NCBI GenBank assembly: GCA_043826455.1
Contig: JBDRQD010000006.1
Span: 1 to 64,000 of the forward strand
Direction: 5' to 3'
From: Candidatus Bathyarchaeota archaeon
Lineage (GTDB): Archaea > Thermoproteota > Bathyarchaeia > TCS64
DNA: 64,000 nt
Position numbers and translations under genes: made by a program. The notes beneath the pieces are model-generated. The model saw only the letters and a list, made by a program, of their open reading frames with translations. It made no database searches and was not told the DNA's origin. Positions 13,919-19,305 of the stretch are shown one piece after another. Every line of letters starts with the position of its first letter. Positions within the stretch are counted from its first letter, which is position 1.

Positions 13919-14977
13919 TTAGGTTTCTAGTGGGTTTGGTGCTCCTATGTATTGTTTTACAGGGTTTTCACTCGGGGGATCTAGATGTTTGGCTAAAAAC
14001 TCATAGATCTCTCCGCGTACTCCTTTTGAGAACCTGGTGTCTAGCCTGCTGAACCCGTGTGCGCCTGGAGTGGGCGGGTATATCTTGTACTCGAAGTCCC
14101 ATTTTTTAAACTTCAGCGATTTTATCAGGTGTTCTACTTCCAGTACATTAACATCTTGGTCATTCTCTGTGGAGTGGACAAGAAGAGGAGGGTGTACGTT
14201 TGGTTGGTACTCTGGGACGTTCCAAGCTGGTGATCTCCTTTTATAGTTAGAATAGTCATCGTTTCCACTCTTCCCGATGTGGTACTCTGCTTCGAACAGG
14301 TCTCTGTAACTTTGCGACTTGTACCCCATCCTGGCTACAACGTCACTCACAGGTACTGACGCGTGAGCCGCCTGGTAATCCGTTGGGTGATTGAATATAT
14401 TGAACAAGGTATGCATTCCGCCGTGGCTCCACCCCATGATACCCACTCTTTCAGAGTCAACGCAGTCATAGTTTTCAACCATGAACTTCTTGGACTCGTA
14501 GGTATCCTCGGACTCTAACCCACCGTAGTCAATTAACTCGTAGAACTCTTTACCGTACCCAGTGCTACCACGGTACTCCGGCGCCACCACAACGTATCCT
14601 TGTGCTACAAGTTCTCCGACTACGTTTGAAGCCATCGAGTTAAAGTTAGAGTGTACTCCTCCGTGAGGTAGTACGATAAGCGGGCTTTTTTCTCCCTTCT
14701 TTAGATTTCTAGGTATGAATGTATACGCAGAAAACGTTACTCGGTTGCCAGCTCCTTGAGCCGTTGGATTAAGCTGGTACTGAGAAGGCGGGCCCGTTAA
14801 TGTAACCTTGTCGATGTACGCAAGGCCGCCGACTTTGTGGTACCATAGAACGTCGTCCACCATCATCTGAGTGGCCGAATGCATGTGGGCTAATGGCCCA
14901 TACTCCATCCCATTAATTACCAGCTTCTTCAATACGGTTTCAGCTATTTTTTGGATTTCTTCATCTGTTAACAACAT
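13919..14977 (-). CDS. S9 family (prolyl oligopeptidase/acylaminoacyl peptidase-like) serine peptidase
   Basis: PHGG, YRGSTGYG, GWSHGG nucleophile, ENDQDV, GAHGF; ATG at 14977 preceded by GGAGG. Confidence 0.9.
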   Translation of the reverse strand: MLLTDEEIQKIAETVLKKLVINGMEYGPLAHMHSATQMMVDDVLWYHKVGGLAYIDKVTLTGPPSQYQLNPTAQGAGNRVTFSAYTFIPRNLKKGEKSPLIVLPHGGVHSNFNSMASNVVGELVAQGYVVVAPEYRGSTGYGKEFYELIDYGGLESEDTYESKKFMVENYDCVDSERVGIMGWSHGGMHTLFNIFNHPTDYQAAHASVPVSDVVARMGYKSQSYRDLFEAEYHIGKSGNDDYSNYKRRSPAWNVPEYQPNVHPPLLVHSTENDQDVNVLEVEHLIKSLKFKKWDFEYKIYPPTPGAHGFSRLDTRFSKGVRGEIYEFLAKHLDPPSENPVKQYIGAPNPLET

Positions 14978-15103
14978 GATTCCTCCACCATTACATTCCC
15001 TCAAATTGGCGGGTAGACAACCCAAAGAAAGCGAGGCTGTGGCAGATCAGATATTTGGTTTCTTTGGGGAAAGGAGACTTGGCTTTCACTTTAGTTTATC
15101 CAC

Positions 15104-15202
15104 CATTCGCCTTGAAGGCTATCCCCCCGTCGTGGGGTTAAGTGCGTTCCAGCGTAACCAGCCTCTGGGTACGTTTCTGACAATCCCTCAGCACGAGTTA
15201 AG
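15104..15202 (-). ncRNA. Candidate structured cis-regulatory RNA leader, copy B (upstream of the S9 peptidase)
   Basis: Shares the CCCC-ACGAC-GGGG hairpin, GYGC/GCRC helix, CNG/CNG-GAA helix and terminal GAAUG with copy A, with compensatory changes. Confidence 0.6.
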
Positions 15203-15244
15203 CATGTTATAGGAATGCCTCCTTTAAAAAAAATGGGAATTATC

Positions 15245-15880
15245 CTACATAGGGATAATTTTCAGAACCTGAAGCAGATACTCGATTCTGCCTGAGAGCA
15301 TGGACATCCTGAATAGCACGGTGTTGCCGAACATTACGCCTAGACCAATCATGACGATGAGTCGGCCCAGTCTCGCTGTTGGAGCGAGCACCCCCTTATG
15401 TTCTCTTGTGAACAGGAAGTAGGATAAAGCGCATATTGTGCCGACGCCAACGTAGACGAAGTTAAACCAATCCATCATAGTTGCGCCCGATGGCGCAGTA
15501 ATGGTGGAGTTAATCTGGTTGATGATATTGGGGATCAAGGTGCCGCTTGTCACAACACCTAACATTACGCCTACAAGTGTAGCGATAGAGTACCTTGATA
15601 TCCATCTATACTTTTCTACGAAGACGGTGTACATACCCAGTCCAAGAAGTATCGGTATGACGAACACGTATTGTCCATTCAGTAATGGGGTAATCGCGAT
15701 CCTGTTCGTGTTCTGAACCGCGACGATCGCTGTTATGGCAAAGGCGATGCCGATGTAGATGTGTTCAGCCAACCTGTAAAGCGGGTTCTCTTTGTAGAGC
15801 ATGTAGCTGTAGATGGCTACGGTGAGAACCGCACCCACCCATAACCCCAGCAAGCCCCATAGCTCAGTTGGATACGCCAT
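15245..15880 (-). CDS. Uncharacterised multi-pass membrane protein (gene 4 of the membrane module)
   Basis: About 6 TM; KENPLYRLAEHIYIG and MIGLGVMFGNTV..R motifs. Confidence 0.85.
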   Translation of the reverse strand: MAYPTELWGLLGLWVGAVLTVAIYSYMLYKENPLYRLAEHIYIGIAFAITAIVAVQNTNRIAITPLLNGQYVFVIPILLGLGMYTVFVEKYRWISRYSIATLVGVMLGVVTSGTLIPNIINQINSTITAPSGATMMDWFNFVYVGVGTICALSYFLFTREHKGVLAPTARLGRLIVMIGLGVMFGNTVLFRMSMLSGRIEYLLQVLKIIPM

Positions 15881-15881
15881 T

Positions 15882-16709
15882 TCAGTTTCCTCCTTTAATT
15901 TTATTGTATATTATTGGCAAGTTAGCTAGGACAATCAGTATTACGAAGAGTAGATGAGTGGAACTGATAGCGTCCATTGTTGTTGTGGCTGCAGCAGGCA
16001 TGTCAGCAAGTTTCTCTAGCTCCGCTGCTCCCCTCACGCCTACTGCTAAACCGAAGATGTCTCCGCTAGCGAGGTAAGGTGCAAGAGCTGAGCCTTTCAT
16101 TGCGATACCCATACCAGCAACAGGTATCCCATAGGGCTCTCCCCACTGCTGGATCCACTTCACTTCTCCCTCCGCTGTGAATAAGACCATAGCATAGTCT
16201 GTGGCGCGGTTTGCTTCACGCATCAAGGGTAGATCATTGATAGGGGTCCCGAAGTGGTCGGCTGGGAATATGGAGCTCATGTCAACCGCCATTTGTGATG
16301 CAGCAGCATCTTCTCCAGCGTAGTAACCTAGGAAAACCACGTCTGTGCCGTATTCCAGTGTTTGAAGCTTTGGAACCAGTTCATTTAAACGGTCCCAGGA
16401 CCTGGCGACGTCAATACTGTTACCTAGGTAGACAAGCTTTGCGCCTCTGTCGATGAGTGTGTTTGTCTCTACGACAAGCCCACCCATGCACTCAGCCCAC
16501 GTGCTTACGCTCATGAAGATGTCAATGAGTACAATGTCGCCGTCTTGAACTGACAGCAGGCCATCATATAGTGCCCTTGAGGAGGGCTTAACGGTGATTG
16601 GCAGTCCTATGGGGGTAATCAGAGGCCAGGCTATGACGATGACTATCAGCCAGTAGTAGACTCTTCTGTCAAGTTTGTCAAGTCTATCAAATATGGTTTG
16701 ATTAGCCAT
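15882..16709 (-). CDS. Uncharacterised membrane protein with central alpha/beta domain (gene 3)
   Basis: N- and C-terminal TM; LGYYAG, PYL.SG...G...G..GAAE.E motifs; tightly coupled to neighbours. Confidence 0.85.
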   Translation of the reverse strand: MANQTIFDRLDKLDRRVYYWLIVIVIAWPLITPIGLPITVKPSSRALYDGLLSVQDGDIVLIDIFMSVSTWAECMGGLVVETNTLIDRGAKLVYLGNSIDVARSWDRLNELVPKLQTLEYGTDVVFLGYYAGEDAAASQMAVDMSSIFPADHFGTPINDLPLMREANRATDYAMVLFTAEGEVKWIQQWGEPYGIPVAGMGIAMKGSALAPYLASGDIFGLAVGVRGAAELEKLADMPAAATTTMDAISSTHLLFVILIVLANLPIIYNKIKGGN

Positions 16710-17339
16710 CTATTCACCTCCGCCGAAGAATCCTCTCTCGTTACCGGTGATTACTCTGTAGGCGTACACGATTGTCCCGAGACCTGCGATCAACATTAGA
16801 ACCCTGTATCCAGGTAGTTGGCCTGGACCTAGGAGCCAGTCACCTATCACGGGGAATCCTGACCAGATTACCTCTCCGATAGGAGCATTGGTAAAGACAA
16901 CTATGCACCCAGCTATGAGTAGTAGAGCTGCATCAATGTTTCTGGCTCTGAAGGCTCGGTAGGCTGAGGATACAATGAAGAAACCGGTGCTCGCGTACAT
17001 GGTTTGCTCTAAAGTAGTGTATACGTTTCTGAATGCCCACTGGTACTGGGCTCCATTGGTGTTGATTAATCCCAGTATGAAAACTGTCACGAATGTTACT
17101 ATAGTCACTATGCTGTACAGCCATCTTCCTTCTGCTCTTTTCAGCACAGTTTTCCCATGTATCCTTAACAGGCTGATGACGCCTAATCCTAGAGCGATGT
17201 TTGAGATTACTACAGCGAACTGTCTGAGGACCTCAGCTATAGATCCTATACCAGCGATCGCAAAGAAATAGTCGGCAATAATTATAGCGAATACTAAGAT
17301 AGGTATGTATTTGAAAGCTGTTGATTTAATAAACGACAT
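16710..17339 (-). CDS. Uncharacterised multi-pass membrane protein (gene 2)
   Basis: About 5-6 TM; FFIVSSAYRAFRARN motif. Confidence 0.85.
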   Translation of the reverse strand: MSFIKSTAFKYIPILVFAIIIADYFFAIAGIGSIAEVLRQFAVVISNIALGLGVISLLRIHGKTVLKRAEGRWLYSIVTIVTFVTVFILGLINTNGAQYQWAFRNVYTTLEQTMYASTGFFIVSSAYRAFRARNIDAALLLIAGCIVVFTNAPIGEVIWSGFPVIGDWLLGPGQLPGYRVLMLIAGLGTIVYAYRVITGNERGFFGGGE

Positions 17340-17343
17340 AGTA

Positions 17344-18123
17344 TCACAACCTCAGTAGATCTACAAGGAACTTGATGCCAGTAGGAGCGAGAATCATGCC
17401 CAAGATCATTATCCCAAGGGACACTAACTTGATTACATCTTCAGCAGCTATAGGCCCCACAGCTCCTGCGTCGCCTGATACTGCTGCTGCGGCAGCGAAA
17501 AGCTCCTCCATTATTAAAGTATAGTCTGTGCTAGCAACGAGAAAGGGTATCTGGTATAGGTTGACTGTTCCACTTATCTGCATGGCGCCCACATGGTTAC
17601 CTGCTTCTGAGAGTACCACAGACTCGTATGCAAGGTAGCCTATCAGGCATGCAGCGGCTGGGTTCTCTCTCTGAACTGCACCAATATATCGAGACACCAG
17701 TGAGCTCTGGTTCGCGATTAGTTCAATGTCATCGTCATTGTACTCCTCGCCTTTTCCTTCAACAGCATAAGCGTTTCTGATTGTTTCCTGGATAAGAGGC
17801 ATGGCGTCAATTGTAACAGTGAACAGTCTGAGCTTAACGCCTGCTTTGGCCGCGAAACGGGCTAAGCGTCCTAGGACTGTGATGCCTGCTAGAATGTATG
17901 CTCCACTCGAGAGGCTTAGTGATGACCCGATACCAGGCATGTAGAAGATGGGTCTACCCATCTCGGCGCATCGGCCAACAGCCTCAGGTAAAGCCTCCAA
18001 GGCCGCCAAGCTTCGAATTTTATAGACCTTGCCTTGCTCCATCATTCTGGTGAACAGGTAGTATAGGACAAACGAGCCAAATAGTAAAACGAAGGCAACG
18101 ATCCGTCCGTCTTTAAGTAACAT
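17344..18123 (-). CDS. DUF6754-like membrane protein (gene 1)
   Basis: IRSLAALEAL.EAVGR.AEMGRP, ESVVL.EAG..VGAMQI.GT..Q.PF..A.DY.LI.EELFAA; family name from recall, not a search. Confidence 0.75.
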   Translation of the reverse strand: MLLKDGRIVAFVLLFGSFVLYYLFTRMMEQGKVYKIRSLAALEALPEAVGRCAEMGRPIFYMPGIGSSLSLSSGAYILAGITVLGRLARFAAKAGVKLRLFTVTIDAMPLIQETIRNAYAVEGKGEEYNDDDIELIANQSSLVSRYIGAVQRENPAAACLIGYLAYESVVLSEAGNHVGAMQISGTVNLYQIPFLVASTDYTLIMEELFAAAAAVSGDAGAVGPIAAEDVIKLVSLGIMILGMILAPTGIKFLVDLLRL

Positions 18124-18143
18124 CTTGTTCTTTTTCCATTTTG

Positions 18144-18262
18144 CATTCCCTGTTGATGGACAACAGGGCGTTCACCCCGTCGTGGGGCATAGCGCTTTCC
18201 GTCGTTCCCAGACAGGTTGTACTGCCGGGAAACTCACTCGGTGTAACCCTGCGCGGGCTATG
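18144..18262 (-). ncRNA. Candidate structured cis-regulatory RNA leader, copy A (upstream of the membrane module)
   Basis: Multi-stem 5' leader ending about 20 nt before the ATG; same motif order as copy B; G-U pairs form only on the minus (sense) strand. Confidence 0.6.
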
Positions 18263-18331
18263 TAAACCAGGGTTTACATTTTGATCTAGCATTAGATCAT
18301 ACAGTATGTTCATTATTTACTGATTTATAAT
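18260..18331 (-). promoter_or_regulatory. Putative TATA box (TTATAAA, 18330-18324) and two palindromes (18260-18279, 18282-18299)
   Basis: ATGTAAACC-ag-GGTTTACAT and TGATCTA-gcat-TAGATCA inverted repeats in the divergent AT-rich intergenic region. Confidence 0.45.
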
Positions 18332-18465: not shown

Positions 18466-19305
18466 TTGGGAATGCTAGAGCTACTCTCTGAATTGATCCA
18501 GAACAGATGCATCAATCCGCCTGGGAACGAGATGAGGTCAATTAAATCAATAGAACAGTATATGCATAAACATGGCGTCAAAAGTAGAATATACGAATCA
18601 GCACCAAACAGAGGCAATTTAATCGCTAGAATCTCGGGTTCAGGGAGTGGCCTCACTCTCATGTTTGGGCCAGGTCACGTCGATGTAGTGCCAGTGGATG
18701 ACGCTGATGCGTGGGATGAAGATCCGTTCACAGCCACGATAAAGGATGGCTACATGTGGGGCAGAGGTTCTCACGACATGCTCTTCATGGTCACCGCCCA
18801 CGTACAAGCATTCATTGACCTGAAAAGAAGCGGGTTTAAACCAAAAGGAGACCTGTTGCTGCTGGTGGTCTCAGATGAGGAGGGTGAGGGAACCTATGGA
18901 TCGCAGTGGATGCTCGAGCATCACCCTGAGACAGTGCGTACTGACTACGCGGTCTCAGAGGCGGGCGGATGGCTCAATGAGCAAGGGGGCGTGGTCTTCA
19001 CCTTCGGAGAGAAGGGGGACGTGTACACTAGCCCTGTTGAGTCGGCCTTCGTCACAGTTATGGAGCAGGCGATCCAAAGAGAGGTGCCCGGCGCTAAACT
19101 TGTACCCGAGATGATGCCCGGAAAAACTGATTTAAAGTTTCTGAGAAAGATGGGCGTAGAAGCGTACGGTTTCGGTCTTTACGACTCTGAGACGCCTTCT
19201 CATGCGAGGAGGGTTCATGGGCCCAACGAGAGGGTGAGCCTTAAGACGCTGGAGCTTACTCACAGGGTTTGCACTCACCTCGCTAAGGGTTTAAACGCGT
19301 CGTAG
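18466..19305 (+). CDS. M20/M25/M40 metallopeptidase apparently lacking the dimerisation domain
   Basis: GHVDVV, GRGSHDM, SDEE, EAGG, HGPNER; only 279 aa, with GEKG joined directly to TSPVES. Confidence 0.8.
   Translation: MGMLELLSELIQNRCINPPGNEMRSIKSIEQYMHKHGVKSRIYESAPNRGNLIARISGSGSGLTLMFGPGHVDVVPVDDADAWDEDPFTATIKDGYMWGRGSHDMLFMVTAHVQAFIDLKRSGFKPKGDLLLLVVSDEEGEGTYGSQWMLEHHPETVRTDYAVSEAGGWLNEQGGVVFTFGEKGDVYTSPVESAFVTVMEQAIQREVPGAKLVPEMMPGKTDLKFLRKMGVEAYGFGLYDSETPSHARRVHGPNERVSLKTLELTHRVCTHLAKGLNAS

Follow-up and report, generated by a model that had tools for sequence, protein, structure and literature searches.

A conserved pseudoknotted leader RNA before DUF6754 and S9-family genes of Bathyarchaeia, a candidate archaeal riboswitch

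The DNA analysed here, referred to as the window, is a stretch of 64,000 nucleotides (nt) from a Candidatus Bathyarchaeota archaeon (assembly GCA_043826455.1, contig JBDRQD010000006.1, positions 1 to 64,000 of the forward strand). Its minus strand carries two copies of a structured RNA motif. Copy A precedes a four-gene membrane module (D1-D4), and copy B precedes a hydrolase gene of the S9 family. A first-pass annotation, made from the sequence alone, had put forward these two copies as one motif in two 5' leaders, and both were confirmed with the order of elements that it described. The features of the locus, all within the window, are as follows.

18466-19305, plus strand: divergent M20 peptidase gene, given as context and not under the motif
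18324-18330, minus strand: TATA-like box of leader A, 73 nt before P1, with a predicted start at about 18300; a consensus match only
18261-18299, minus strand: two extra 5' hairpins before copy A, outside the conserved motif (z -3.7); both also in L008, the first in L004
18247-18257, minus strand: copy A P1, CCC/GGG, with the loop GCGC-A as the 5' strand of the pseudoknot
18199-18241, minus strand: copy A P2, with C-stem CCG/CGG, AGU bulge, tandem GA/GA of a standard kink-turn and a variable distal stem
18192-18195, minus strand: copy A 3' strand of the pseudoknot, GCGC
18175-18187, minus strand: copy A P3 hairpin, CCCC-ACGAC-GGGG
18142-18168, minus strand: copy A P4 (18168-18148) and conserved AAUGCA (18147-18142), 18 nt before the start codon
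17344-18123, minus strand: D1, DUF6754, 259 amino acids, a membrane-anchored Rossmann-like domain; first gene under leader A
16710-17339, minus strand: D2, membrane protein of the module, 209 amino acids, no Pfam family
15882-16709, minus strand: D3, membrane-anchored alpha/beta protein of the module, 275 amino acids, no Pfam family
15245-15880, minus strand: D4, membrane protein of the module, 211 amino acids, no Pfam family
15223-15233, minus strand: T8 tract and AAA, 33 nt before P1, putatively terminator-like (for D1-D4) and/or TATA-like (for leader B)
15187-15197, minus strand: copy B P1, CUC/GAG, with the loop GUGC-U
15149-15180, minus strand: copy B P2, with a plain AAA bulge and no kink-turn
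15142-15145, minus strand: copy B 3' strand of the pseudoknot, GCAC
15125-15137, minus strand: copy B P3 hairpin, CCCC-ACGAC-GGGG
14992-15118, minus strand: copy B P4 with a 121-nt folded insert (15118-14998) and conserved AAUGUA (14997-14992), 14 nt before the ATG
13919-14977, minus strand: S9-family alpha/beta hydrolase, 352 amino acids, catalytic domain only, with a GWSHGG motif; under leader B

The motif consists, in order, of P1, a linker, P2, AAN, the strand GCRC, a 4-nt linker starting with U, P3, KGAWNG, P4 and AAUGYA, and the conserved fold spans 115-210 nt. P1 is CYC/GRG with a loop of GYGC plus 1-2 nt, and the linker that follows it ends in GAUCG in most copies. P2 and P4 are variable in sequence and length yet stay paired, and P4, which measures 20-127 nt, folds on itself. 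P3 is CCCC-ACRAC-GGGG; this 13-nt hairpin had been described as invariant, but its loop reads ACAAC in L009 and L087 (G to A in 2/35 copies). Both window copies end in conserved GAAUGYA after the variable stem. The GCCU/AGGC hairpin with GAAUG that had been taken as the end of copy B, at 15104, is non-homologous, and the true end lies at 14992. A pseudoknot arises from pairing between the first hairpin's loop and the GCRC tail. As the first-pass annotation had supposed, the GCGC in the loop of the UAGCCC/GGGUUA helix is a pseudoknot strand, and GCGC/GCGC in copy A versus GUGC/GCAC in copy B is a compensatory difference; the pairing is Watson-Crick in 36/36 distinct copies and covaries. A second compensatory pair, CCC/GGG versus CUC/GAG in P1, had been missed. 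The motif is built of two look-alike units, in each of which a short hairpin of C and G is followed by a GAWNG linker, a stem that varies and a tail of the form AAN-GC, and these mirrored halves suggest an old internal duplication.

The folding energy of single copies was not significant on either strand (sense z -1.9 for A and -0.65 for B; antisense -1.6 and -0.07), so the case for structure is a comparative one. In the 2.95-Mb genome the pattern of GGAA, the GCRC strand and the hairpin occurs at two places, both of them the window copies, and the 13-nt hairpin by itself is found at three, of which the third lacks the rest of the motif. D1 was searched at the protein level in the 79 genomes of the order, and the loci of the best 30 matches were taken. 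A covariance model (R1) was run across the same 79 genomes, a second one, built on the 3' unit, across 150 genomes belonging to the class, and an exact pattern over metagenomes, where it gave 52 loci, of which full motifs only entered the counts. True copies scored at least 39 bits and chance matches at most 20.6 bits. The resulting set comprises 36 distinct full copies plus a variant, D. The copies fall into clade A (16, before D1), clade B (17, before S9) and clade C (3, before an S9 gene of 68-71% identity). By their translations, the 31 metagenome loci with a full motif all precede D1 (15) or S9 (16) on the same strand. The other 21 were not full motifs: 19 scored at most 20.6 bits with R1 and two scored 16 bits, the value at which L069 and L108 were rejected as chance.

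Two structural peculiarities of the clades were observed. Inserts of 117-127 nt in P4 of four B copies (window 14998-15118, L040, L070 and L089) are multi-branched, partly share their sequence and contain a GGUGG/CYACC stem; they may represent a second inserted element. The clade-C copies (L086:385-430 on the minus strand, L087 and L100) carry one more conserved hairpin, located after the TATA-like box and before P1.

Conservation of the motif exceeds that of its surroundings. In L009 and L010 the 49-nt core keeps 94-98% identity to that of copy A, although the four-fold sites of D1 are saturated, with only 29-32% of them shared, and the upstream flanks are as similar to those of copy A as shuffled DNA. 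The core of copy B is likewise 92-94% identical where four-fold sites are shared at 22-32%. Loci L004-L010 had been picked by protein and not by motif, so for them the comparison of core conservation is not circular; the metagenome copies had been picked by pattern. The invariant bases are concentrated in loops and linkers while the stems vary, and some 20 unpaired positions do not vary between the three clades and the two genes. P1 covaries between C-G (19 copies) and U-A (17), and the pseudoknot also covaries between C-G and U-A. The change in P1 separates B from A and C, and the change in the pseudoknot separates A from B and C; since they split the clades differently, they are counted as two separate events and not as 33. 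P2 and P4 keep their pairing at 92-96%, and in clade A six of their pairs are changed on both sides with 96% of cells paired. In mixed alignments the cells paired, the cells changed and the covariation score beat 500/500 shuffles, which ignore kinship among the copies, and all slid controls. Covariation, which the first-pass annotation had named as a check, is thus present in P1, the pseudoknot, P2 and P4, with that of the core resting on two events.

These data bear on whether the motif acts as DNA, as an operator palindrome or a small mobile repeat. CCCC-N5-GGGG is indeed a dyad, and the island has about 41-52% GC against 58% in the genome. However, the spacing of the blocks varies by more than 100 nt with pairing kept, the genome holds two copies only, and orientation is constant, as is the distance to the start codon. 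No match was found in plasmids and phages, and 34 hairpin matches in viral contigs all scored at most 20.6 bits, the level of chance. We consider this explanation largely refuted and the least probable of those weighed here. The leader is a real, strongly conserved cis-acting RNA family of narrow range. In passing, the same noncoding stretch with CCCC-ACGAC-GGGG was seen in a metagenomic locus (L075:1478-1551) and a viral one (L188:370-443); at 20.6 bits it seems unrelated.

The distribution of the family was followed from both genes. R1 matched 19 places in 11/79 genomes of the order, all of the window's genus and all before D1 or S9 genes. The 3'-unit model gave 11 places of at least 55 bits, again all in the window's genus; of its seven weak places (at most 21 bits), which were discarded, five on inspection lie within or overlap reading frames. 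Matches were found before DUF6754 and peptidase genes on the sense strand, as the first-pass annotation had anticipated, and random position or orientation was not seen. Among the best 30 D1 matches, the motif accompanies 8/8 orthologues of 72-100% identity and 0/22 relatives of 43-49% identity, five of which have short upstream sequence. Within the genus it occurs at 9/9 close S9 orthologues and 0/3 distant S9 paralogues. The motif-bearing S9 genes form one well-supported clade, and the older association of the motif is probably that with S9. The named close relatives are Bathyarchaeia, and the motif was not found in five bacterial genomes that carry S9 homologues. A phylum-wide pattern matched 1/401 genomes, the window's own; it was too strict to match most clade-A copies, and the sample included just two further genomes of the order. 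A looser pattern matched in 29/79 genomes of the order; many of these matches were chance ones in coding sequence, and full motifs alone were counted. The core of copy A is nearer to clade C (43/49) than to the neighbouring copy B (37/49), which shows that the window copies do not stem from a recent local duplication.

Variant D (L129:1240-1481, genome G435) keeps P1 with GUGC and an intact 3' unit, and in it P2 and the GCRC strand are replaced and the leader is longer and G/C-rich. A similar sequence occurs in RNA run X7 as a loose end at a depth of about 220. At L086:1025-1110, a 65%-identical D1 gene, divergent from the clade-C S9 gene, has a three-hairpin leader without a match to the motif model.

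The position of the motif in the transcript was predicted from upstream signals. In 13/16 clade-A copies a TATA-like box begins 31-33 nt before P1, placing the predicted start a few nt before P1; in window copy A the distance is 73 nt, with the two extra hairpins in between. A T-rich match is found in 7/17 B copies and doubles as the tract after D4. Of the two TATA-like boxes proposed by the first-pass annotation, that at 18330-18324 is retained for copy A as a consensus match, while that at 15229-15223 is ambiguous, as it doubles as the T-tract after the stop of the upstream gene. At the other end, the gap from AAUGYA to the assigned start codon is 17-21 nt in 34/36 copies, and it is 14 nt to the ATG at 14977 in window copy B. 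The distance of the motif's 3' end from the start codon (14-21 nt) is independent of the length of P4.

RNA libraries of related strains were also consulted: 21 of the 24 RNA runs listed contain 12-21% of the sampled words, and contigs from four were examined. Contigs span 17555-18282 (X3) and 17968-18277 (X2), from leader A into D1. One X7 contig with a clade-A arm stops about 6 nt before P1, and a second connects D4 with S9 across leader B. These contigs, which carry neither strand nor start, hint weakly that the messages include the leaders; they are also only a weak check on transcription starts downstream of the motif, although they do extend through leader A. That S9 in three runs and the sequence upstream of 18424 in four were without RNA cover was not used as evidence.

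The same contigs bear on a self-cleaving ribozyme or RNA-processing site, which would be glmS-like if gated by a ligand. A compact pseudoknot with invariant single-stranded bases would suit such an RNA, and copy B lies between two co-oriented genes at a possible processing point. Against this, no Rfam ribozyme matches the motif and the contigs run unbroken from leader A into D1, although partial cleavage would be compatible with them. We regard catalysis as very unlikely.

P2 carries a further element in part of the family. A standard kink-turn, that is a 3-nt bulge followed by tandem G:A and A:G pairs as defined in PMC6298567, is present in 15/16 A copies, 2/3 C copies and 0/17 B copies; window copy A has it and copy B does not. 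The turns of clades A and C have U at L3, and in all 15 A turns the pair -1b:-1n is G:C, which according to the same paper blocks folding in ions alone. That paper also documents control of archaeal leaders by L7Ae, and a gene for an L7Ae-family protein is present in the genome. L7Ae is probably an accessory factor in clades A and C, attached to the P2 kink-turn.

It is possible to go further and read the whole leader as protein-responsive, with the look-alike units as tandem sites for an RNA-binding regulator, possibly a dimer, and with L7Ae on the kink-turn; protein binding would then control translation in place of a small molecule. The pseudo-symmetry of the two units, the L3 and -1b:-1n identities of the turns and the L7Ae gene all favour this. 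However, the kink-turn is absent from every B copy while the core persists, so L7Ae cannot account for the core. About 75 nt separate the turn from the start codon, whereas in l7ae leaders, as PMC6298567 describes them, the ribosome site is adjacent, and no regulator gene accompanies the locus in the relatives examined. We hold a protein-responsive leader to be unlikely, though the strongest of the alternatives.

The genes below the leaders give some clues to what might be sensed. The models of D1 and D3 are confident (pLDDT 90 and 89) and contain membrane-anchored Rossmann-like domains, but fold searches with them returned generic Rossmann-like matches only (best Z 9.9, many tied). DUF6754 has no sequence relative in the PDB, the profile match of D1 with D3 was not significant, and a literature search found nothing on DUF6754. 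The module is widespread, being present in 74/79 genomes of the order with up to 15 D1 matches per genome, and the genome of the window has eight paralogous four-gene DUF6754 modules (contigs C6, C15 (four), C31, C40 and C46). Several of these adjoin peptidase-like or amino-acid-mutase-like genes. S9 adjoins a DUF6754 module also in a Bacillota genome (L123), there without the motif. The propeller domain of solved S9 peptidases is missing from the S9 protein, the match covering only residues ~80-330; N-termini are signal-peptide-like in its bacterial relatives and short and helix-like in the archaeal clade. Neighbours at the motif loci were surveyed by eye (15 neighbours, 13 with a family) and include an M20 peptidase, S9, an acyltransferase/C45-like protein, asparaginase, aminotransferase IV, amidase, amidohydrolase and MutL/GlmL. 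From such peptidase and amino-acid neighbours our best guess for a ligand is an amino acid, a peptide or an amide. A role in peptide uptake, which had also been proposed, and a transporter function of the module are tentative readings of the gene neighbours.

Folding of the copies predicted a rival to the pseudoknotted structure. This is a rod in which the P1 and P3 strands are swapped, and it has the lowest predicted energy in clades A and C; clade B gave more varied predicted folds. Against the nested model, scored without the pseudoknot pairs, the rod was on average 6.9 (A), 5.0 (C) and 4.2 (B) kcal/mol lower. Covariation favours the pseudoknotted structure. A ligand-stabilised leader would be expected to show such a combination of two competing folds, invariant unpaired bases and a constant spacing to the start codon.

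Three further candidates for a regulatory part were set aside. The AUG of AAUGYA was considered as the start of a leader peptide, but its frames are start-stop (3 copies), 5-52 codons long or in-frame fusions, with all three registers represented. The 3' strand of P3 might be a masked Shine-Dalgarno sequence, pairing with the 16S tail at -10 to -16 kcal/mol, but in neither predicted fold is it free, and the following AUG has no conserved frame, so it is only a minor lead. A helix of GCR with 3' UGY closing a three-way junction fits all copies, at a probability of at most 0.10 and with no two-sided covariation.

Our preferred reading, which we rate a little short of an even chance, is that the motif is a new class of cis-acting leader RNA, a metabolite riboswitch that tunes translation initiation or message lifetime. 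The RNA would alternate between the swapped rod and the pseudoknotted fold. A small ligand, most plausibly an amino acid, a short peptide or an amide, would bind the invariant bases of the loops and junction and tip the balance towards the pseudoknotted fold, and this shift would alter the packing of the 3' GAAUGYA beside the ribosome landing site and with it translation initiation or message lifetime. A more specific version is correspondingly more tentative. It would make the motif an archaea-born class with a pseudo-symmetric two-unit fold and an L7Ae-assisted arm, which senses an amino acid, peptide or amide and exerts control without a terminator or masking of a Shine-Dalgarno sequence.

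Several observations weigh against a riboswitch. Neither predicted fold hides or frees the start region and no expression platform was found; P3b is paired and P4 forms in both folds. No U-tract follows the motif in either window copy, and in clade A and the short-P4 copies of clade B the stretch leading from the motif to the start codon is rich in A and lacks a Shine-Dalgarno sequence. P1 and the pseudoknot have no linker between them, so that all seven pairs may not form together. The core covariation amounts to two evolutionary events, and a pair-count measure was not significant on two mixed alignments (29/500 and 205/500 shuffles). Variant D lacks the GCRC partner. L130, a close S9 gene of 70% identity in the same clade, has no motif, and the range is narrow, being one Bathyarchaeia genus among the GTDB genomes searched. 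The leaders of sister DUF6754 operons are unrelated to the motif and fit a general stabilising role. Of the regulatory role claimed by the first-pass annotation, a cis-regulatory structured leader is well supported, while a helix gating a start codon or terminator, as for a riboswitch, was not found.

Some of these points would suit a constitutive structure without sensing, one that shields the 5' end against nucleases or aids ribosome loading on Shine-Dalgarno-less messages. The motif starts a few nt from the predicted start in most clade-A copies and has no evident switch platform. The sister operons (43-49% identical to D1; L011-L032, e.g. L012:1355-1480, L016:1350-1480, L024:1390-1480, and upstream of 109481 on contig C15 of genome G000) have structured leaders of their own, namely long stem-loops or Y-shaped structures near the predicted start, alike at the base and variable at the tips (z -4.4, -2.8 and -2.4). 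However, a stabiliser needs pairing and not some 20 fixed unpaired loop and linker positions, and copy A is already preceded by two extra 5' hairpins. We find such a structure improbable, and the motif remains a credible archaeal riboswitch candidate. With a Bathyarchaeia-confined leader class of aptamer-like conservation, the existence of riboswitches particular to archaea can be tested on a 120-nt RNA, without culture. If the RNA binds a metabolite, its ligand points to the substrate of the widespread, uncharacterised DUF6754 module; with a protein as its partner, it would still define a new post-transcriptional regulon in archaea.

The motif was compared with known RNA classes. Rfam 15 gave no match at the gathering threshold over the window and none over the motifs at E≤10, and on three further diverse copies (L086, L005 and L055) it gave only 10-15 bits against cut-offs of 37-60, in agreement with the first-pass annotation, which had recognised no known family. 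The motif belongs to no tested family, being set apart by the Rfam models and by the general definitions of the classes, that of the kink-turn being a published one. SAM-I and c-di-GMP-II riboswitches combine a kink-turn with a pseudoknot, and lysine, glycine and cobalamin riboswitches contain a kink-turn. Like these metabolite riboswitches, the motif lies in a 5' leader and has invariant junction bases and variable peripheral stems. Unlike them, its turn, lost in clade B, orients a loop that is not conserved, its pseudoknot is formed from the loop of the first hairpin, and it has neither a terminator or anti-Shine-Dalgarno platform nor an Rfam match.

The c-di-AMP riboswitch ydaO resembles the motif in having two pseudo-symmetric halves, each of a helix, a purine linker, a stem and a short linker, with a GGGGUGAA stretch before the stem. 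The order of the helices differs, and P3 of the motif is a closed hairpin; the genes downstream of ydaO are usually cell-wall or potassium genes, unlike those of the motif. RF00379 has no match at either copy at E 10, its two 13-bit genome matches lying elsewhere and below the cut-off of 38. Guanidine-II (mini-ykkC) RNA has two hairpins, each with an ACGR tetraloop, and shares with the motif two G/C hairpins and an ACGA string in one loop. It was rejected, as the loop of the motif is a 5-nt ACRAC with G/A variation, the other loop, GYGC, pairs downstream, and Rfam gave no match. Box C/D guide RNAs have a C box RUGAUGA and a D box CUGA flanking the guides; they too were rejected, the clade-A turn being UGA-RUC or UGA-GUU with YGA, without a C'/D' pair, and snoRNA matches being at the level of chance. 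Two genome copies in a fixed context do not suit a mobile repeat of the repetitive extragenic palindrome (REP) or miniature inverted-repeat transposable element (MITE) type.

A literature search, with subscription journals mostly outside it, found no description of the motif or of a Bathyarchaeia riboswitch. The main text of a 2026 preprint atlas of intergenic clusters (10.64898/2026.10.21.760802) mentions neither Bathyarchaeia nor DUF6754 nor peptidase, and its supplements or cluster tables may contain the motif without annotation. The 5'-UTR (untranslated region) switch of archaeal l7ae is likewise an archaeal leader with a standard kink-turn that is unlikely to fold without L7Ae. As described in PMC6298567, the turn there is the whole element and abuts the ribosome site, whereas that of the motif is peripheral and absent from clade B. 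The fluoride riboswitch of Thermococcus kodakarensis was, according to PMC8241225, the only natural archaeal riboswitch shown experimentally by 2021. It is also a small pseudoknot in a leader, but the motif has no match to RF01734 and precedes different genes. The fluoride class is shared with bacteria, whereas the motif was found only in Bathyarchaeia, and the archaea-born class of riboswitch, if real, would be the first one native to archaea.

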